Source of the DNA: Thermoanaerobaculia bacterium | GTDB taxonomy: Bacteria; Acidobacteriota; Thermoanaerobaculia; Multivoradales; UBA5704 | DNA: 12,690 bases | Direction: 5' to 3' | Assembly: GCA_044226625.1 (NCBI GenBank) | Contig: JBGAGQ010000112.1 | Coordinates: 1 to 12,690 of the forward strand | Shown here: positions 5,562 to 12,690 of the stretch, one piece after another | How positions within the stretch are numbered: position 1 is the stretch's first letter | Layout: each line of letters starts with the position of its first letter | The notes under the pieces: model-generated | What the model was told of the DNA's origin: nothing | What the model saw: the letters and a program-made list of their open reading frames with translations, nothing else | Database searches by the model: none | Position numbers and translations under genes: made by a program

Positions 5562-7085
5562 GTGGAGCTGGCGCGTCTGGTCAGGATCACCCGCGATGGC
5601 TCAGCAGTGAACGGCGGCACCGGCTATCTGCTCGCCACGCACCTTGTTCTCACCGCGCGACACGTCGTCGAAGGCGCTGAACGGATCGAGGTTCGTTACA
5701 ACGGAGCCGATGGCAAGGAAGCGACGGCGGAACCGATCGAGCCGCCCTATTTCGGCGAAGGGGATCTCGATCTGGCGGTGCTTCGCGTGGCGACGGGCCT
5801 TGACCTTTCTGCGGTGCCTCTCGGTCCCGAGCGATTTATCGGTGATCGCCCTTGGCGTTCGAAGGGGTGGGCGCGCGCGGCCCGAGGGGTCGCGGCGGAG
5901 GAGGCGAGCCAGGCTGATCGGATGAGCGCGCTCGCCGGGTCCGCTTATGAATTCTCCGCGACGGCGACGACTTTCGAGCTGGGAGTCGACGACCCGCCGA
6001 CCGAGCTCGATTGGTGGAAGGGTGCATCCGGCGCTCCTGTGTTCATTGCCGACCGTTCCGGTGAAAGGCTGGTCGGCGTGATCGCACAGGGGGATCAGCC
6101 CTTCGACGGTCGGCGGCTGCGCGCCGTGCCGCTCGCGGCGGTCTGGGGCGATCGACGATTCCTTGCCGCGATCGACCACGACAAAGCGCAGGAAGAACGT
6201 CGCAAGCGACGGAAAGAGGAGCTGATCTCTGCTCTCGAAAACCGCCTCAGCCTGCACCACGAGGCCGCTTGGACGATCGCCAACGAGCATCCTCTTTGGC
6301 GAGAGGCGCTGGATCAGAAAGAGAGCAGCGGATACCTCGCCCTGGCGAAGGCCCTTTGCGAATCGCGCTCCTGGCGCGAAACGATCGAGCTGCTCGACCG
6401 TGCGCACCTTCGGATGGTCGAGGAAGAAGAACGTGATGCTTCCAGGACCTCGCATGAACGCTCGCACTCCGAGGAGATCGTCCGGATCTTGGAGCGCGTC
6501 CTGCCGGAGGTGTATTACTCGACGGTGAGCCAAGCGGCACCGAAAGGGGAGGGGAGCTTCATCGAGCTTCCGGTCGAGACCGCGACGCTCGCCGAGATCG
6601 CGATGGCCGCGATCGACGGGCGGTGTCTAGCTTTGGAAGAGGTCCGCAAGAAGAAGGTCTATCCGAAGAGCACTTTTCAGATCGACCCGAAGCACTCGAA
6701 GGAGCGGAAAGGGTTCGACTTCACGGGGGCTGCTGCGCTCGGCGGCTGGCTGGAGGTCATCGCGCGATGGATCGGCCTCGATCCGGACGACATCGAGACA
6801 CTGCGCCACCCGAATCGCCTGGACGAGTTGGCGCGACGCATTGATAGTGAGATCGAAACCGACGTCCGGCGCGGAGAGCCTCGACGCTATTTCGTCTATC
6901 CGAGCGACTTCGCCGAACGAAACCAGCTATTCCTTCGACAGCTCGGAAGCGCGCTTCACTCCCTCCGATTCGTCCAACTGACCGGCAAGAGCCTCACCGA
7001 CGAGCGCGACGCCTGCGAGCCGCTGCGCGCAATCCTCTTCCGTTCCTATGAGCACCGCAACAAGAAAGGCAGGCGCCGATCGTGA
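5562..7085 (+). CDS. Trypsin-like serine protease fused to an uncharacterised ~300-aa C-terminal domain (third component of a MoxR/vWA ternary system)
   Basis: Intact triad motifs GTGYLL...LTARHVV (His), DLDLAVL (Asp), WKGASGAPVF (Ser); no signal peptide; starts 3 nt after the Trypco2 stop; its TGA overlaps the MoxR GTG (GTGA). Confidence 0.85.
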   Translation: MELARLVRITRDGSAVNGGTGYLLATHLVLTARHVVEGAERIEVRYNGADGKEATAEPIEPPYFGEGDLDLAVLRVATGLDLSAVPLGPERFIGDRPWRSKGWARAARGVAAEEASQADRMSALAGSAYEFSATATTFELGVDDPPTELDWWKGASGAPVFIADRSGERLVGVIAQGDQPFDGRRLRAVPLAAVWGDRRFLAAIDHDKAQEERRKRRKEELISALENRLSLHHEAAWTIANEHPLWREALDQKESSGYLALAKALCESRSWRETIELLDRAHLRMVEEEERDASRTSHERSHSEEIVRILERVLPEVYYSTVSQAAPKGEGSFIELPVETATLAEIAMAAIDGRCLALEEVRKKKVYPKSTFQIDPKHSKERKGFDFTGAAALGGWLEVIARWIGLDPDDIETLRHPNRLDELARRIDSEIETDVRRGEPRRYFVYPSDFAERNQLFLRQLGSALHSLRFVQLTGKSLTDERDACEPLRAILFRSYEHRNKKGRRRS

Positions 7086-8053
7086 GATTCCTCGACGTCC
7101 GACCGGGTGAAGCCCGGACGTTGCCGGCCCATGGGGCGCTTTCGGAGGCCGTCCACGTCTTCGACGAGCGGATGATTGCCGCGATCGACGCGGCGCTCGC
7201 CGCCGACCGACCCCTTCTCGTGCGCGGCGAGCCGGGTACGGGAAAGAGCCAGCTCGCGCGCGCCGCGGCGGTCGCGCTTGGGCGCGTGTTCCTCCCGTTC
7301 ACGGTCGATGCCCGAACCGAATCGCGCGACCTCCTCTACTCGGTCGACACCGTCGCTCGGCTCGCTGAATCGCAGATCGTCGGCTTTTTGAAGAACTCGC
7401 AACCCGCGCTCGACGTCCGGGCGCACCTCGCCGAGAAGAATTTCACCTCGCCGGGCCCTCTCTGGTGGGTTTTCGACTGGCAGGGCGCGACCGATCAGGC
7501 GACCGTGGCGAGATCCGCGACGCCCTGGTCGCCGCAGGGCTGGACACCCGAGAACGGCGCGGTCCTCCTTCTCGACGAGATCGACAAAGCGGATCCGGCG
7601 GTTCCGAACGGCCTGCTCGAAGCGCTCGGCCTCGGCCAGTTCCCGACCCCCTGGGGCGATACGGTTTCGAGCCAGTCCGCGGTGCCTCCTCTCGTCGTAA
7701 TCACGACGAACGAAGAGCGGTCGTTGCCCGACGCGTTCGTCCGCCGATGCCTCGTCCTCCAACTCGGCTGGCCGATTCGACGCGACGAGCTGATCGCCGC
7801 CCTGATCGCGCGAGGCCGAGCCCACTTTCCCGCCGCCGCCGAGAATCTCTTGGCGACCGCCGCCGGAATGGTCGCCGACGATCGGGAGGCGATTCTCGAT
7901 CGGCACCTGAACCCGCCCGGCGGAGCCGAATATCTCGATCTTCTTCGCGCTGTGATCCGGCGCCACCCCGACGATCCCGAGGCCCAGAAGGCAGGGCTCG
8001 ATCGCATCCGCTCCTTCGCGCTGCGCAAGCATCCGGAGGAGAGGGAGGGTTGA
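7082..8053 (+). CDS. MoxR-family AAA+ ATPase
   Basis: RPLLVRGEPGTGKS (Walker A), VLLLDEIDKAD (Walker B), PNGLLE, VVITTNEERSLPDAFVRRC (sensor 1/Arg finger). DLLYSVDTVARL and GPLWWVFDW are typical of conflict-system MoxRs. 323 aa. Confidence 0.93.
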   Translation: MRFLDVRPGEARTLPAHGALSEAVHVFDERMIAAIDAALAADRPLLVRGEPGTGKSQLARAAAVALGRVFLPFTVDARTESRDLLYSVDTVARLAESQIVGFLKNSQPALDVRAHLAEKNFTSPGPLWWVFDWQGATDQATVARSATPWSPQGWTPENGAVLLLDEIDKADPAVPNGLLEALGLGQFPTPWGDTVSSQSAVPPLVVITTNEERSLPDAFVRRCLVLQLGWPIRRDELIAALIARGRAHFPAAAENLLATAAGMVADDREAILDRHLNPPGGAEYLDLLRAVIRRHPDDPEAQKAGLDRIRSFALRKHPEEREG

Positions 8054-10773
8054 GCCTCTCGATGGGGCCCCGGCCCGCGGCCTCCGCGGCAAGCCGCGCC
8101 GACCTCTATCGGGCGCTCGTCGAAGGAGGCGAGAAGGCGCTCGCCGCCATGGCGGAGCTGCTCGGCTATGAGGAACGCCCCTCGCTCGGAACCGGCACGC
8201 CCCGCCAGCAGGAGCCTCGCGAGCCCGAGCCGACCGCCGAAAAGCCGGCACCGGAAAAGCCGGTAGCTCGCCCGCCCACAACCTTCTGGTGTTTGGAGGA
8301 GGTCGAGCACCTCACGCCCGCTCCGGCTCCGGCGCGCCCCGCCGTCGCACCGATCGGATTGGAAGGGATCGGCCTCCTCGAAGGCCGCCCGCCGCGGACA
8401 TCACCGATCGTTTCCGATGCGCGACTTTGGGCGGCACTCCGCCGCCGCCTCGGCTCGACCTCCAAGAGCCGCCAGGTCGACGTCCGGGCGCTCGCGGATT
8501 CATGGAGCCGCGGCAGAATCCGGCGCGAGATCCCATATCGAGCGCTGCCTGCCTGGACCTCTCGTGTGCTGGTCCTCGTCGACGGAAGCGCGCACCTCGG
8601 CCCTGTGCGCGACGACCAGCGGCGGTTGATCTCCGAGCTGAAGCTGCGGCTCGGAAAATCCGCGGTGCGGTCGGTGCGATTCACCGAGGGAATGGAGCGG
8701 CCCTGGAAAGACGGGCGAGAGCGCCGAAGCGAGCCGCCGTTCGAAGCCCGCACTCCAGCGATCGCCTTGAGTGACCTCGGCTTTGTCGGGGGTTTGGACC
8801 GACGTGCCTTCTGGGTGAGCGTAGCGCTCTCCGCCGAACGGGCGGACGCGCCGCTCGCTGCGCTGGTGCCGGTCGGGGCCGATCGCTGGGAGAGGAGCGC
8901 TGGTCATGCGTGGAACGCGCTTCCTTGGGAGCGGCCCGAACGTGCGCCGGAGCCGGGCCCTGCACGCGCCGAAGACCAGCGACGAGAGCGCGCCGAGCGC
9001 CTGCTTAGCCTCCTCGCATTCGCCTCGCGCATTGAGCCCGGGCTCCTTCGCTCGGCGCGCCGCCTGCTTTCGCCGCAGGAAGCGGACCAGGGCACCGAGC
9101 TCGACGCGTGGAATCTCGCCGGTGTGGCCGGAGGTTTCGCTTCGGCGGCCGTGGTTTTCTCAGCCGAGCTGCGACACAAGCTGGAAGAGCGTTTTCGGGC
9201 GGAAGATCCGGACCGAAAGGGAAAGCTATTGGCCCTGCAACGCTCCTGGCGTCGGGGCCAACCGAAAGAGATCTGGCTCGACGAGGTGCTCGCTCTCGAC
9301 GCGGCCGGAGACCTTCCGGCCGGGGTCTTGCGGAACGAAGAGGTCGAAGCGGCCCGTGCTCTCTGGGAGCGGATCGGCGAAACCCTGGAGAGCGGGGCCG
9401 CATCCCAGGTGGTCGCCGAAGGGCTGAGCCGTTATGTCCGTGAAGCGGTCGGCGAGCACCTTCCGAAAACGGCCTGGGACGACGAAAGTTGGTCCCACCT
9501 TCTTTCCCGCGCCTGGAAGCACGCCTGGAAAGGCCCCGGCCCCCCGCCCCTTCCCCCCGGGGTCGGCTCCGGCGTGCTCGACCTGCCCCGCGGCGAGGCG
9601 CGCCGTGGCGCCTTGTGGCAGGTGGCTGGCGATCTCGTCTGGAGCCCTTCGGGCGCGTCCCTTCCTGCGGGGAGCCCGCTCGCGGCGATGGAGTCCTCGG
9701 ACGGACTGGTCACCCTCGCCGGGGAATGCTCTGGCTGGTCAACTCCCCGACCGCTCGGCGAAGGGCAGGCGCTGCCGCGACGCACCGGGGAACTCCTCGT
9801 CCTCACCGATCGCACGCGTGCGACGCTCCGCCGGATCGTGCGCCCGGCTTGGGCGCAGTCGGTCGGCAGAGACCGCCACGGCCTCTGGGCCACTCTTGCG
9901 GTGGGCGAGGCTCGGCAAAAGATGCGGTGGATTGCGCCTGGGCGGTTCTGGATGGGCTCGCCAGAAGACGAGCCGGGAAGGTATTACTGGGAGCAGCTCC
10001 TTCATCTGGTGGAGATCAAGAACGGCTTTTGGCTCGGCGAGACCCCGTGTACTCAGGCACTTTGGCTTGCGGTGATGGGGGGCGGAAACCCGAGCGAATT
10101 TCAGACACCTGACCGCCCGGTCGAAAGGGTGAGCTGGGACGACTGTCAGGAGTTCCTCGGAACGCTCCGGCAAGACAAGGCCGGAGGCGAAATCTGGCGG
10201 CTTCCGACCGAGCAGGAGTGGGAGTACGCCTGCCGAGCGGGGACGGAGACGGCGACCTATGAGGGGTCGATCGAGATCAAAGGGGAACACAACGCACCGG
10301 TCCTCGGCCCCATCGCCTGGTACGGTGGAAACAGCGGCGTGGACGATCTGGAGAACGGTTGGGATTCGAGCGACTGGACTGAGAAGGAGGAGAAACACAC
10401 CCGAGCCGCGACTCACCCCGTCGCCTTGAAACGCGCGAACCCCTGGGGTCTCTACGACATGCTCGGCAACGTCTGGGAGTGGTGCCACGACTCGGTCGAT
10501 CCTGAAATGACACCAAATCCAGAGGGCCCGTACCGGGTGTTTCGTGGCGGCTCGTGGTACGAGCTCGCCCGGAACGTTCGCGCGGCCTACCGGTACTGGT
10601 ACCTCCCGAGCGACCGCGACGACAGCTTCGGCTTCCGCCTTGCCCGAGGTCAGGAATCTGCGCTCCGGCAAGGGGCGGAGCCCAGGGGCGCGGAGCGCCC
10701 CACCCGGGGCCTGCCGAAGTGCGGGACGCGCCGGTCAGGCCCAGGGCCGCGGCCGGAGGCCGCGGCCGAATGA
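8050..10773 (+). CDS. vWA-like domain protein with C-terminal FGE-sulfatase (SUMF1-like, C-type lectin fold) domain; putative DGR target 1
   Basis: Likely start TTG 8050 (TTGA overlap with the MoxR stop, after GGAGGAGAGGGAGGG) or ATG 8062; the extension to 7465 overlaps MoxR. vWA-like core VDVRALADSWSRG...VLVLVDGSAHLGPVRDD...IALSDLG. FGE domain MRWIAPGRFWMGSP, TPCTQALW, PVERVSWDDC, RLPTEQEWEYACRAG, NPWGLYDMLGNVWEWC, RVFRGGSW...FGFRLAR. About 907 aa. Confidence 0.88.
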   Translation: MSLSMGPRPAASAASRADLYRALVEGGEKALAAMAELLGYEERPSLGTGTPRQQEPREPEPTAEKPAPEKPVARPPTTFWCLEEVEHLTPAPAPARPAVAPIGLEGIGLLEGRPPRTSPIVSDARLWAALRRRLGSTSKSRQVDVRALADSWSRGRIRREIPYRALPAWTSRVLVLVDGSAHLGPVRDDQRRLISELKLRLGKSAVRSVRFTEGMERPWKDGRERRSEPPFEARTPAIALSDLGFVGGLDRRAFWVSVALSAERADAPLAALVPVGADRWERSAGHAWNALPWERPERAPEPGPARAEDQRRERAERLLSLLAFASRIEPGLLRSARRLLSPQEADQGTELDAWNLAGVAGGFASAAVVFSAELRHKLEERFRAEDPDRKGKLLALQRSWRRGQPKEIWLDEVLALDAAGDLPAGVLRNEEVEAARALWERIGETLESGAASQVVAEGLSRYVREAVGEHLPKTAWDDESWSHLLSRAWKHAWKGPGPPPLPPGVGSGVLDLPRGEARRGALWQVAGDLVWSPSGASLPAGSPLAAMESSDGLVTLAGECSGWSTPRPLGEGQALPRRTGELLVLTDRTRATLRRIVRPAWAQSVGRDRHGLWATLAVGEARQKMRWIAPGRFWMGSPEDEPGRYYWEQLLHLVEIKNGFWLGETPCTQALWLAVMGGGNPSEFQTPDRPVERVSWDDCQEFLGTLRQDKAGGEIWRLPTEQEWEYACRAGTETATYEGSIEIKGEHNAPVLGPIAWYGGNSGVDDLENGWDSSDWTEKEEKHTRAATHPVALKRANPWGLYDMLGNVWEWCHDSVDPEMTPNPEGPYRVFRGGSWYELARNVRAAYRYWYLPSDRDDSFGFRLARGQESALRQGAEPRGAERPTRGLPKCGTRRSGPGPRPEAAAE
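10525..10668 (+). other. Putative DGR variable region VR1 (10525-10629) plus invariant IMH-like block (10630-10668)
   Basis: Aligns without gaps to 11756-11899; mismatches concentrate at positions 1-2 of NNC codons and mostly involve A; followed by 39 identical nt GGCTTCCGCCTTGCCCGAGGTCAGGAATCTGCGCTCCGG. Confidence 0.8.
10673..10767 (+). promoter_or_regulatory. Array of four GGA-triloop hairpins downstream of VR1 (candidate DGR homing cis-element)
   Basis: GGGC-GGA-GCCC (10673-83), GGGGCGC-GGA-GCGCCCC (10685-701), GTGCG-GGA-CGCGC (10719-31, one T-G pair), GGCCGCGGCC-GGA-GGCCGCGGCC (10745-67). Confidence 0.7.
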
Positions 10774-10865
10774 AATTGGCATTTTTCGCGGTGCCGGCGG
10801 AAGGCGGAATGGAGGTCGCCGCCGACGTGAACCGATTCCTTGGCGCACACCGCGTCGTCGCGATC
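10770..10865 (+). pseudogene. Truncated 5' fragment resembling the DGR-associated HRDC accessory protein
   Basis: ATGA overlap with the upstream stop. MKLAFFAVPAEGGMEVAADVNRFLGAHRVVAI resembles the N-terminus (FF.IP...LN.FL..HRV) of HRDC proteins encoded beside DGR RTs, from memory. Similarity ends at CTAG 10866; the frame then runs through a palindromic repeat to TGA 11042 with no HRDC domain. Confidence 0.6.
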
Positions 10866-10900
10866 CTAGGGGTCCCTCAGAAGAAAGGGTCGTGCGAGGT

Positions 10901-11012
10901 GGCTTTTCCTGGGCTCGCCAGGCTCCAGCCTGGCATCGATCGCTGCATCGAGCTGGCTGTGTGCTCGAAGCCAAAAGCGCCACGCTGGAGCGTGGCGAGC
11001 CCAGGAAAGGCC
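10901..11012. repeat. Inverted pair of REP-like palindromes (REP doublet)
   Basis: 10901-10934 and 10979-11012 are 34-bp inverted repeats with 3 mismatches; each arm has an internal hairpin (GCCAGGCT-CC-AGCCTGGC; GCCACGCT-GG-AGCGTGGC); 44-nt spacer. Confidence 0.75.
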
Positions 11013-11038
11013 CCCGATCTTTCCGCGGAGCGCCTTTC

Positions 11039-11902
11039 GTGACCTTCCGCTCCCACCCGCTCGAAGACGGTTGCCCTCCTGCCTGGGCCTCCGGCTGGGG
11101 GGAGGACGAATTCGGGATCTTCGCCGAGTTTTCTGTCGGGGAAGCGTCGCAGCGGATGCGTTGGATCGAGGCGGGGGATTTCATGATGGGCTCGCCAAAG
11201 GACAAACCGAGGCGGTGGGGTGACGAAGGACCGCAACACCGCGAAGCGATCGAAGAAGGGTTTTGGCTCGCGGACACCCCCTGTACCCAAGCGATCTGGG
11301 AGGTGGTGACGGGTTCGAACCCGAGCCGCTTCAAGACGCCCGATCGGCCGGTCGAGCAGGTGAGCTGGGAGGACTGCCAGGAATTCTGCCGCAAGCTCGC
11401 CGAGAGGATCGGCGGCCCGGGGTGGCGTCTCCCTTCCGAGGCGGAGTGGGAATACGCCTGCCGGGCGGGGGCCGAAACCGCAACCTACGCGGGGCCGATC
11501 GAGCTGAAAGGCGAAGCCAACGCCCCGGTGCTCGGCCCGATCGCCTGGTATGGCGGGAACTCAGGGGATGGCTACGATCTCGAAGAGTTCGAGGACTCCT
11601 CCGATTGGCCCGAGAAAGAAATCGCACACATGCGGGCCGGGACGCGGCGGGTGAAGACCAAGGAACCGAACGCCTGGGGCCTCTACGACACGCTCGGCAA
11701 CGTCTGGGAGTGGTGCGAGGATTTCTGGTCTGCCGGGTATGACGCCGAACGCAAGGGCCCGTCCCGGGTGATCCGTGGCGGCTCATGGAGCACGCTCGCC
11801 CGGCTCGTTCGCGCGGCCTACCGGGGCTGGTACCACCCGGGCGTCCGCTTCGACGACCTCGGCTTCCGCCTTGCCCGAGGTCAGGAATCTGCGCTCCGGT
11901 AG
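11039..11902 (+). CDS. Stand-alone FGE-sulfatase (C-type lectin fold) protein; putative DGR target 2
   Basis: GTG 11039 with GGAG 8 nt upstream; MTFRSHPLEDGCPPAWASGWGEDEFGIFAEF...MRWIEAGDFMMGSP...RLPSEAEWEYACRAG...NAWGLYDTLGNVWEWC...RVIRGGSW...LGFRLARGQESALR*. 287 aa; paralog of the C-terminal part of 8050-10773. Confidence 0.9.
   Translation: MTFRSHPLEDGCPPAWASGWGEDEFGIFAEFSVGEASQRMRWIEAGDFMMGSPKDKPRRWGDEGPQHREAIEEGFWLADTPCTQAIWEVVTGSNPSRFKTPDRPVEQVSWEDCQEFCRKLAERIGGPGWRLPSEAEWEYACRAGAETATYAGPIELKGEANAPVLGPIAWYGGNSGDGYDLEEFEDSSDWPEKEIAHMRAGTRRVKTKEPNAWGLYDTLGNVWEWCEDFWSAGYDAERKGPSRVIRGGSWSTLARLVRAAYRGWYHPGVRFDDLGFRLARGQESALR
11756..11899 (+). other. Putative DGR variable region VR2 (11756-11860) plus invariant IMH-like block (11861-11899)
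   Basis: Second copy of 10525-10668 at offset 1231 nt; same mismatch pattern as VR1. Confidence 0.8.
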
Positions 11903-11903
11903 G

Positions 11904-11998
11904 GGGCGGAGCCCAAGGGTGCGGAGCGCCCCACCGGGGCCGGCAAGGCGCGGGACGCGCCGGCCTGGCCCCGGATCGCGGCCGGAGGCCGCGATCCG
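11904..11998 (+). promoter_or_regulatory. Array of four GGA-triloop hairpins downstream of VR2
   Basis: GGGC-GGA-GCCC (11904-14), GGGTGC-GGA-GCGCCC (11917-31, one T-G pair), GGCGCG-GGA-CGCGCC (11947-61), CGGATCGCGGCC-GGA-GGCCGCGATCCG (11972-98). Confidence 0.7.
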
Positions 11999-12181
11999 AA
12001 TTTGAGAATCCGGCCGGCCGGGACCTCGATCGCAACCGCCGGGACCTTGGTCCGAGCCGCCCGGACTGCAGTCGCGACGACCGGGACAGGGTCCGGAAGC
12101 CGGCGGCCGGGGAGGAACTCCATGCCCGTTGGGAAGCGCTCCCCAAAACTCCGCAAGCGCACTTTTCTCAGGGCGGAACCT

Positions 12182-12249
12182 TCGCCTTTTCTCCTTCCCA
12201 GAAGGAGAACTTTGGGCTGAGTTCTCCTTCTCAGAAGGAGAAAGGGCGA
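12182..12249. repeat. Nested palindrome: 30-bp inverted repeat whose arms are themselves hairpins
   Basis: Arms 12182-12211 and 12220-12249 (3 mismatches, 8-nt loop); internal TTCTCCTTC-CCA-GAAGGAGAA (12189-209) and TTCTCCTTC-TCA-GAAGGAGAA (12222-242). Confidence 0.75.
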
Positions 12250-12267
12250 CACTCGCCGACGTCCGGC

Positions 12268-12357
12268 ATGGGCCGGGCCTTCAGCCCTTGCCGCCTCGTC
12301 GGCGCCTCGATTCCTGGGGCTTCACCCCAGGCTATTATGGGACGCGCCTTTGGCGCT
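12268..12357. repeat. REP/BIME-like composite palindromic unit
   Basis: Degenerate direct repeats ATGGGCCGGGCCTTCAGCCCT (12268-88) and ATGGGACGCGCCTTTGGCGCT (12337-57), each a small hairpin, flank CCTGGGG-CTTCA-CCCCAGG (12313-31). Confidence 0.6.
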
Positions 12358-12650
12358 GGCCGCCTCAGATCCTCTCTTGACGTACTAAGGTTGCGCCCCT
12401 TTTTCACCGCTCCGCAGCAGAAGCCCGGTGAGAAGTTCGGGCTAGCGTCGATTGGCGCCAGAGGAACATTTCGGCCGGCTGGGTTCGAGAGCGCCGCGAC
12501 CTGTGGCGCTCGGGGTCGTAACACGGAAGATAAGCGCCAAAGGCGCGATCGATAATAGATGCTATGGAGGGTCGAGGCCCCCGGGTGAGTGAGGTTGTGG
12601 GCCGGCTGGATAATTCTCTGGAACCACCATCGCCAAACGGAGGCAACCAG

Positions 12651-12690
12651 ATGAGCCAGACGACCCACAAAACAGAGTCTAAAGCGGCCG
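12651..12690 (+). CDS. 5' end of an unidentified gene running off the window (MSQTTHKTESKAA...)
   Basis: Strong SD GGAGG at 12639-12643, 7 nt before ATG 12651; frame open to the window end. Too short to assign. Confidence 0.5.
   Translation, partial: MSQTTHKTESKAA

Follow-up and report, generated by a model that had tools for sequence, protein, structure and literature searches.

The targets of diversity-generating retroelements (DGRs) can carry a hairpin-forming inverted repeat behind their variable region (VR), and such repeats are the closest described relatives of the element reported here. Target hairpins, as described in the accessible text of Guo et al. (2011, PMC3240598), have GC stems of 7 to 10 bp and a 5'-GRNA loop on the sense strand and lie 4 to 34 bp from the VR; in the Bordetella phage, the sequence of the stem was free, and both the sequence and the size of the loop were critical. 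In a survey of DGRs, again as far as its accessible text goes, inverted repeats were found downstream of the initiation of mutagenic homing (IMH) sequence in 127 of 372 DGRs (34%), and HRDC-type "architecture C" DGRs with FGE-sulfatase targets were described (Wu et al. 2018, PMC5758913). Here, we analyzed a stretch of 12,690 nucleotides (nt) from Thermoanaerobaculia bacterium assembly GCA_044226625.1 (contig JBGAGQ010000112.1), referred to below as the window, in which two tandem genes each end in a VR-like stretch followed by an array of four hairpins with a GGA triloop. We consider it probable that these arrays are DGR target-flank hairpins by descent and in kind, and we would regard them as a multi-hairpin version of the inverted repeat known downstream of DGR VRs.

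Like the mtd hairpin/cruciform of phage BPP-1, in the form given by the accessible text of Guo et al. (PMC3240598), the arrays are GC-rich inverted repeats outside the homology between template repeat (TR) and VR, 25 nt from it here compared with 4 to 34 bp, and they pair free stem sequences with a conserved, purine-rich loop on the sense strand. They differ in number, with two to five hairpins in place of one, in that some stems have 4 to 6 bp, and in being known from sequence alone. The DGR lineage to which we connect them has an HRDC accessory protein rather than Avd and a TR downstream of the reverse transcriptase, and its TR flank also has a hairpin with a GGA-containing loop, unlike the BPP-1 TR as stated in the accessible text of the survey (PMC5758913). 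With the HRDC-type DGRs described there (Treponema denticola TvpA type), the lineage shares FGE-sulfatase/C-type-lectin targets, a C-terminal VR, an HRDC gene, and several targets, including remote ones; the window itself differs in having only target genes and an accessory stub. A further likeness is to model oligonucleotides. According to the accessible texts of two papers (PMC13037366, PMC3201870), d(GCGNAGC) is an extraordinarily stable DNA mini-hairpin and d(GNA) triloops are stable with a C-G closing pair. Hairpins 1 and 2 of the arrays read GCGGAGC, and C-GGA-G closure is seen in three of the four hairpins, hairpin 4 included; in contrast, hairpin 3 has the less favorable G-C closing pair, and the oligonucleotides are physicochemical models.

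RESULTS

Anatomy and folding of the two arrays

Each copy has four stems closed by a GGA triloop, at 10673-10767 in copy 1 and 11904-11998 in copy 2, all read on the + strand. Copy 1 begins with hairpin 1 (10673-10683; 4 bp, GGGC-GGA-GCCC) and hairpin 2 (10685-10701; 7 bp, GGGGCGC-GGA-GCGCCCC), followed by hairpin 3 (10707-10742), which is long and imperfect and has a 5-bp tip, GTGCG-GGA-CGCGC, at 10719-10731, and by hairpin 4 (10745-10767; 10 bp, GGCCGCGGCC-GGA-GGCCGCGGCC). Copy 2 has the same order, with hairpin 1 at 11904-11914 (4 bp), hairpin 2 at 11917-11931 (6 bp, one of them a T-G pair), a long imperfect hairpin 3 at 11934-11971 (6-bp tip, GGCGCG-GGA-CGCGCC, at 11947-11961), and hairpin 4 at 11972-11998 (12 bp, CGGATCGCGGCC-GGA-GGCCGCGATCCG). 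In both copies, the GGA-loop stem counted as hairpin 3 caps a longer imperfect hairpin of 15 to 17 bp. The arrays stand behind an identical block of 41 nt (10628-10668 = 11859-11899, + strand) that encodes the ...GFRLARGQESALR gene end, and their stems start 25, 37 to 38, 68 to 71, and 93 to 97 nt after the motif GCCCGAG. Beyond the block, the tails of the two copies are 82% identical (84 of 102 aligned columns, with 14 mismatches and 4 gap columns). Array 1 lies within an open frame that runs to TGA at 10771-10773, and array 2 comes after TAG at 11900-11902; copy 1 and the copy of a relative, at locus L097, are translated in the same frame.

When folded as DNA, the 115- to 116-nt tails gave z-scores of -3.95 and -4.61, and none of 200 shuffles was as good; folding as RNA gave -2.85 and -3.81. 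Hairpin 4 differs between the copies by two compensatory pairs (G-C to A-T and C-G to T-A), which are seen also against the relative in L097, and there is one T-G wobble in stem 2 and one in stem 3. The initial annotation of this DNA had placed the two sets of four stems at exactly 10673-10767 and 11904-11998, had noted that the last stem co-varies on both arms and that other stem changes give T-G pairs, and had called the array coding in copy 1 and noncoding in copy 2, all of which we recovered; its identical block of 39 nt proved to be 2 nt too short. Within the genus, the sequence of hairpin 1 is invariant in 8 copies, and stems 1 to 3 are nearly invariant in an alignment of the 8 sequences. 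Because genus stems 1 to 3 hardly vary and covariation in the alignment falls short of significance, two copies, or eight genus copies, do not prove structural selection. The stronger structural evidence is that from distant relatives.

GGA hairpins behind related variable regions

The 23-nt gene end GGCTTYCGCCTNGCCCGAGGTCA (GFRLARGQ/H) was found in 70 stretches of a species-representative genome collection, with record titles naming Thermoanaerobaculia, Planctomycetota, Myxococcales, Nitrosomonas, Desulfobulbaceae, Nitrospinota, Spirochaetales, and others. Most of the 70 ends close FGE-type proteins with the same layout of hypervariable codons, and none is a TR; a few (such as L064, L067, L068, and L107) lie in unrelated sequence. 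Taking the 160 nt after the block as the tail, with the window's two copies included, we obtained 71 unique tails, among them paralogues and tails of related genomes that are not independent of one another, and called triloop hairpins of at least 4 pairs. The tails held 69 hairpins with a GGA loop against 2 with a TCC loop, and the next most common triloop occurred 17 times. At least one GGA hairpin was present in 36 of the 71 tails (none in 35, one in 16, two in 11, three in 6, four in 2, and five in 1). The 160 nt upstream of the block gave 8 GGA and 7 TCC hairpins.

Pairing was also assessed by a test conditioned on the pentamer, in which flanking pairs were counted wherever CGGAG or GGGAC occurred, with no selection for structure. 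At least three further flanking pairs were found at 46% of 95 CGGAG and 48% of 48 GGGAC sites in the tails, compared with 6.5% of 33,746 and 6.4% of 12,640 sites across the window's own genome. The stems were varied, with 22 distinct sequences around CGGAG and 14 around GGGAC, and the reverse-complement pentamers were rare in the tails (14 and 6) and unpaired. Of the 10 tails followed by an HRDC gene, 6 had a GGA hairpin, as did 30 of the 61 others; the hairpins follow the VR end, not the downstream HRDC gene.

Complete retroelements among the relatives

A DGR-type reverse transcriptase lies within 2 kb of the gene end at L070/71, L078/79, L121/122, L094/132, L100, L110, L092, L074, L117, and L114. 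The order in the complete relatives is the target gene with its VR, the hairpin tail, the HRDC gene, the reverse transcriptase, and the TR. Their accessory proteins have about 160 residues and a C-terminal Pfam HRDC domain (E values of 3.4e-20 to 1.1e-16). Homology between TR and VR ends at GCCCGAG (window position 10647), after which the VRs continue with GTCA... and the TRs with CGCA or CTCA, and the first stem of the arrays stands 25 nt past this end.

Thirteen VRs compared with their TRs showed 11 to 24 mismatches at A and 0 to 5 at other bases. Dropped from this count were L079, in which an indel put the ungapped comparison out of register, and L156 and L158, which with 24 to 26 non-A mismatches do not count as targets of that TR. 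In an order-mate, a remote VR (L149) has 15 A mismatches, 1 non-A mismatch, and five GGA hairpins; the cis VR of the same genome (L159) has 18 A mismatches, no others, and two hairpins; and L110 has 11 A mismatches, no others, and three hairpins. At L159 (G347:C23), the HRDC gene, TR, and target gene are consecutive, and no reverse transcriptase lies closer than 10 kb. For a reverse transcriptase of this lineage, the genome offers as its best matches two fragments on a different contig, one of which is interrupted by a stop codon; nonetheless, two of its VRs differ from the TR at adenines only.

The TR flanks at L071, L074, L094, L100, L117, L121, and L126 have a hairpin with a GGA-containing loop just 3' of the homology end. 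Read by eye, such loops (GGA, GGAT, GGAC, or TGGAT) occur in 7 of 9 distinct flanks, and most minimum-energy folds differ. Given these TR-flank hairpins, a single factor may meet related motifs in the donor RNA and in the recipient DNA.

Signs of probable past homing in the window

The VR-like stretches were delimited on the + strand at 10523-10627, by the mismatch pattern against copy 2, and at 11754-11858, by comparison of the paralogues. Over the 106 nt from 10523 to 10628, the two copies have 20 mismatches, and 18 of these affect codon positions 1 and 2. At third codon positions, the VR has 2 differences in 35 sites, compared with 42 in 100 in three ungapped domain blocks upstream. The mismatches favor sites of hypervariability, as judged from thirteen copies from other genomes: they occupy 15 of the 35 hypervariable columns and 5 of the remaining 93 (Fisher p = 1.5e-6). 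Because the third positions are near-identical and the block is identical while the tail is only 82% identical, we infer that the VR and block were homogenized much later than the gene duplication, and after the tails diverged, and were diversified at specific codons. The mismatch pattern is that of a DGR and would point to past homing.

The initial annotation had taken the arrays for a target-recognition element. Their position past the TR/VR end, their sense-strand loops, the VRs of relatives, which differ from a TR almost only at A, and their absence from the rest of the genome agree with that function. As applied to the window, both that term and "VR" are presumptive and lean on homologues, because the assembly holds no TR, reverse transcriptase, or intact accessory gene.

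Specificity of the arrays

A covariance model of the whole tail (R1) matched only the two copies in the genome, together with an unrelated match on contig C10 (E value of 0.33), so that a scan expected to reveal remote targets returned none in this assembly. By blastn at E values of 1e-3 or lower, only the two array copies were found, and the core of hairpin 4 occurs twice in the genome. Two array look-alikes, on C76 (49 nt, E value of 7e-5) and the one on C10, proved to be unrelated sequence. Clusters of at least three short GGA-loop stems, with stems of 4 to 7 bp and a periodic look, occur at 20 other places in the genome. A second model (R2), built on hairpins 1 to 3 without the leader, had 10 matches when 61 related genomes were scanned. 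Each match lies immediately 3' of a VR-like gene end; eight were training sequences, and the other two were G056:C178 and G006:C216. The six other FGE domain ends that were examined in the window's genome all lacked a GGA hairpin over the following 200 nt.

A terminator scan called none of the eight GGA stems, and no T run stands behind them. That scan gave 5 sites between 10400 and 12690 against 2.1 expected, all elsewhere or marginal; on the + strand, the only terminator-like sites were a 5-bp stem at 10765-10780, which overlaps the start of the accessory-gene stub, and one at 12170-12188. No Rfam family matched the arrays at an E value of 1 or lower, and the sole real match in 10300-12690 was Acido-Lenti-1.

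The missing core and the accessory-gene stub

Several observations count against our interpretation of the arrays as DGR target-flank hairpins. Neither a PF00078 profile search nor tblastn with six DGR reverse transcriptases found a reverse transcriptase in the assembly, small-word blastn and a fuzzy search for the gene-end block matched the two copies only and gave no TR, and the HRDC gene is present only as a stub of 32 codons. The genus-mates G001, G003, G004, and G006 gave only weaker, group-II-intron-like reverse-transcriptase matches, and seven VR queries found no TR near the reverse-transcriptase genes of G003, G004, and G006. The only DGR found in the genus (L133, G002:C107) serves another VR family with a different hairpin, and of 401 genomes of the class, one has an exact TR-type block. 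The genus also shows decay of the arrays: stems 1 and 2 are broken in L115, hairpin 1 and a damaged hairpin 4 are all that is left in L006, and L069 is without hairpins. Covariation among the 8 genus sequences was not significant, with 62 of 500 column shuffles reaching the observed value. Among the 13 proven targets, 7 are without a GGA hairpin, and therefore the motif cannot be a universal requirement; the targets without it are the loci of Desulfobulbaceae, Desulfocapsa, Nitrospinota, and DOM43, together with one VR each from Planctomycetaceae and Myxococcales, and some of them bear a long hairpin with another loop. GGA hairpins are favored in GC-rich tails (23 of 27 at a GC content of at least 0.72, compared with 1 of 9 below 0.55), and to this is added the nonindependence of the 71 tails. 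The sense-strand bias and the T-G pairs are as compatible with action as RNA as with action as DNA. The loop, a 3-nt GGA (G-N-A), differs from the 4-nt GRNA given for BPP-1 in the accessible text of Guo et al., and our literature search found no experiment on the target site of an HRDC-type DGR.

The stub (MKLAFFAVPAEGG...HRVVAI) was detected by tblastn at 10770-10865 on the + strand, directly after array 1. It is 41 to 44% identical to full-length accessory proteins over residues 1 to 32 (E values of 2.9e-6, 7.6e-4, and 0.009). The stub has no Pfam match, and the DNA downstream of it shows no resemblance to the rest of the accessory protein; the stub in the relative's locus L006 is even shorter. 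Because of the stub at this place, we take it that a DGR cassette was formerly located between the two target genes. The DGR core is missing from the assembly, but its absence from the organism is not proven, because the assembly is 97.9% complete by markers and is divided into 133 contigs, of which the window is one whole 12.7-kb contig.

Behind the stub, at 10904-11013, lies a palindromic insert of about 110 nt that resembles a miniature inverted-repeat transposable element (MITE) and has perfect 16-nt terminal inverted repeats, TTTCCTGGGCTCGCCA and TGGCGAGCCCAGGAAA. Further copies or parts of it are on C58, C13, C17, and C60, and a similar element lies just after the VR tails in L065 and L077. 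A contig of low depth (4.7, compared with 14.3) from a run that has 97% of the window's sampled words joins 10708 to 11038 through 56 other letters. This contig is a second strain without hairpin 4, the HRDC stub, or the MITE-like insert, and a comparable arrangement is seen in one genus-mate, at L109. Across 10300-12690, the four sequencing runs that were compared, which consist of contigs only with rare variants dropped, break at repeat borders.

In one genus-mate, at L038 (G006:C165, 8422-9792), the 3' end of a reverse transcriptase stands about 70 nt from a hairpin array. We rejected this enzyme as a partner of the array, as it is of the group II intron maturase type, on the opposite strand, and unrelated. 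The DGR at L133 (4356-9671) is complete, with the gene end GFRVVVS, a reverse transcriptase at 7665-8876 (- strand), a TR at 8884-9011, and two VRs, each with a G-run hairpin about 70 to 80 nt downstream. Metagenome scans with the scaffold pattern of the alpha-family VR and with the genus-type flank GCCCGAGGTCAGGANTCTGCGCTC gave 0 stretches each, and a scan of viral contigs for the VR- or TR-type block gave none.

Gene context of the window

The assembly has 6.6 Mb at 67.7% G+C. Target gene 1 (+ strand) encodes a large protein of about 900 residues whose C-terminal FGE-sulfatase domain, with a C-type lectin fold, was placed at 9919-10647 (+ strand) by a genome domain scan (Pfam PF03781, E value of 9.9e-41). 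Gene 2 (11039-11902, + strand; PF03781, E value of 1.9e-44) encodes a short FGE-sulfatase protein, and its start, GTG at 11039, was chosen and is putative. The two genes are paralogous in their 3' parts. Upstream of gene 1 on the + strand are a trypsin-like peptidase (5562-7085) and a MoxR/AAA_5 ATPase (7082-8053), so that these two genes and target gene 1, with its variable lectin fold, together occupy 5562-10773; protease-linked FGE targets are mentioned for DGRs in the accessible text of PMC5758913. A tricorn-like protease gene, also on the + strand, has a 99-nt tandem duplication at 1831-2028 (98% identical) that doubles 33 residues in frame near the N terminus.

At the other end of the window, the Acido-Lenti-1 RNA motif (RF01687) was found at 12313-12357 on the + strand, with 39.4 bits against a gathering score of 37, and a weak inverted partner lies about 220 nt off at 12533-12558 (- strand). 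The surrounding stretch, 12290-12570, has 28 further blastn matches in the genome, often as inverted pairs, and looks like a small mobile element. Between the arrays and this stretch, AG-rich sequence at 12166-12262 forms a long inverted repeat (82% over 68 nt when compared with its own other strand), and its only matches, to microRNA families, are spurious.

DISCUSSION

The arrays would be the 3' flanks of the VRs of two tandem DGR target genes, belonging to a lineage with an HRDC-domain accessory protein and FGE-sulfatase/C-type-lectin targets. Their hairpins would be this lineage's version of the GC-rich inverted repeat behind the IMH, with short GC stems and a G-N-A triloop that is always GGA on the sense strand. 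With the sense strand unpaired, or the duplex extruded as a cruciform, they could mark the recipient VR apart from the donor TR, and integration of cDNA copied from the TR would extend as far as GCCCGAG, which precedes the first stem by 25 nt. A series of hairpins may offer redundancy or avidity. A role at the level of DNA seems to us the better choice, because it follows the same logic as the published GRNA element and because GCGGAGC fits the stable d(GCGNAGC) mini-hairpin. The arrays would then be needed for homing, would act as DNA, and would still act here. That they are presently active in this genome is a possibility that we hold only tentatively, with somewhat more doubt than belief.

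A bolder form of the proposal, which we think rather unlikely, is that the GGA-loop hairpin is a shared, sequence-specific docking module, with one hairpin 3' of the TR in the donor RNA and one to five 3' of each VR, all recognized by one reader, most plausibly the HRDC protein or the reverse transcriptase. If so, GCGGAGC arrays would be multivalent landing pads through which one retroelement serves remote targets in trans, and orphan targets, such as those here, would be kept ready for an incoming element.

The arrays may also be relics, that is, DGR target flanks by descent whose retroelement was lost and which, kept by recent common descent and slow decay, have no function. The missing reverse transcriptase, TR, and intact HRDC gene fit such a history, as do the reduction of that gene to a stub that is shorter still in L006, the 110-nt palindromic insertion after it, the decayed genus copies L115, L006, and L069, and the lack of significant genus covariation. 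However, two compensatory pairs preserve a stem of 10 to 12 bp, the long hairpin 3 has been retained despite 7 differences and an indel, and the VR scaffold is far more alike than either flank, with its differences on hypervariable columns, which implies that homing reached both VRs once the tails had diverged; moreover, metagenome-assembled genomes can miss small or variable contigs. We judge functionless relics to be unlikely on balance, though they deserve to be taken seriously. A lower probability goes to an RNA element, whether a terminator without a U tract, a 3'-end stabilizer, or a processing or attenuation site before the downstream genes. The arrays share with intrinsic terminators GC-rich stems at gene ends, their sense-strand bias is strict, their T-G pairs would be A-C on the other strand, they also fold stably as RNA (z-scores as above), and a terminator role of some DGR inverted repeats is treated as not fully excludable in the accessible text of PMC5758913. 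An RNA element of these kinds is nevertheless improbable, since no T run stands behind any of the four stems, copy 1 lies within an open frame, four to five stems stand in series, the six other FGE domain ends are without GGA hairpins, no Rfam family matches, and the motif accompanies a single VR family in different phyla, whether or not a gene lies downstream.

Still less probable is that the block and hairpins are a recombination anchor that promotes gene conversion between the tandem paralogues, with the variable codons arising by ordinary diversifying selection. It would account for the sharp tract of near-identity at 10523-10668 between paralogues that are otherwise 71 to 80% alike, and for an assembly with neither reverse transcriptase nor TR. 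But homologous VRs elsewhere have TRs with A-only differences, the mismatches between the copies fall on columns hypervariable in other genomes, and the HRDC stub speaks for a former DGR cassette at this place, and we give the idea very little weight. We give almost none to a generic dispersed repeat (a repetitive extragenic palindrome [REP], a bacterial interspersed mosaic element [BIME], or a MITE-like element) or to a peptide-coding constraint on the C-terminal tail. The sequence is GC-rich and palindromic, in the manner of the stem-loops that REP and BIME elements place at gene ends, and a translated frame is shared by copy 1 and the L097 copy; yet the arrays are not dispersed, since the covariance model, blastn, and motif counts all gave just two copies in 6.6 Mb, the weak matches on C10 and C76 are unrelated, and copy 2 stands behind a stop codon and has 1-nt indels that would break the frame.

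The interpretation as DGR target flanks thus retains part of what the initial annotation had proposed. Its argument that conservation is at the level of nucleic-acid structure finds no backing in genus covariation and gains it from the distant tails, the pairing around the pentamers, and the varied stems. Wide occurrence as a generic REP or terminator, which would have spoken against its proposal, is contradicted by the two copies and the missing T tract. Absence from homologous DGR targets, the other outcome that would have done so, was not what we saw, although a majority of the proven targets (7 of 13) have no GGA hairpin. Four stems, described there as unusually elaborate, come near the top of the range without being unique, as relatives have arrays of 2 to 5 hairpins.

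A search of the literature gave no description of GGA-triloop arrays or mini-hairpins behind DGR targets, with the proviso that the supplementary tables of PMC5758913 may list such repeats. What is known, then, is that inverted repeats occur downstream of DGR VRs, and what is new is the GGA-triloop array as a target-flank signature. To our knowledge, the only target hairpin to have been dissected is the single GAAA-loop stem of the Bordetella phage, which belongs to an Avd-type element. How DGRs find and open their targets is still unsettled, and the arrays would supply, for an HRDC-type lineage that has gone unstudied, a second target-flank signature that is clearly different and comparatively well delimited: triloops of the form G-N-A, specific to one strand, on free stems, in one to five copies, in several phyla. 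For the organism, the practical upshot would be that two lectin-fold genes near a trypsin-like protease and a MoxR-type ATPase are hypervariable now or were so recently. More widely, the motif could help to find remote or orphan DGR targets in GC-rich genomes.

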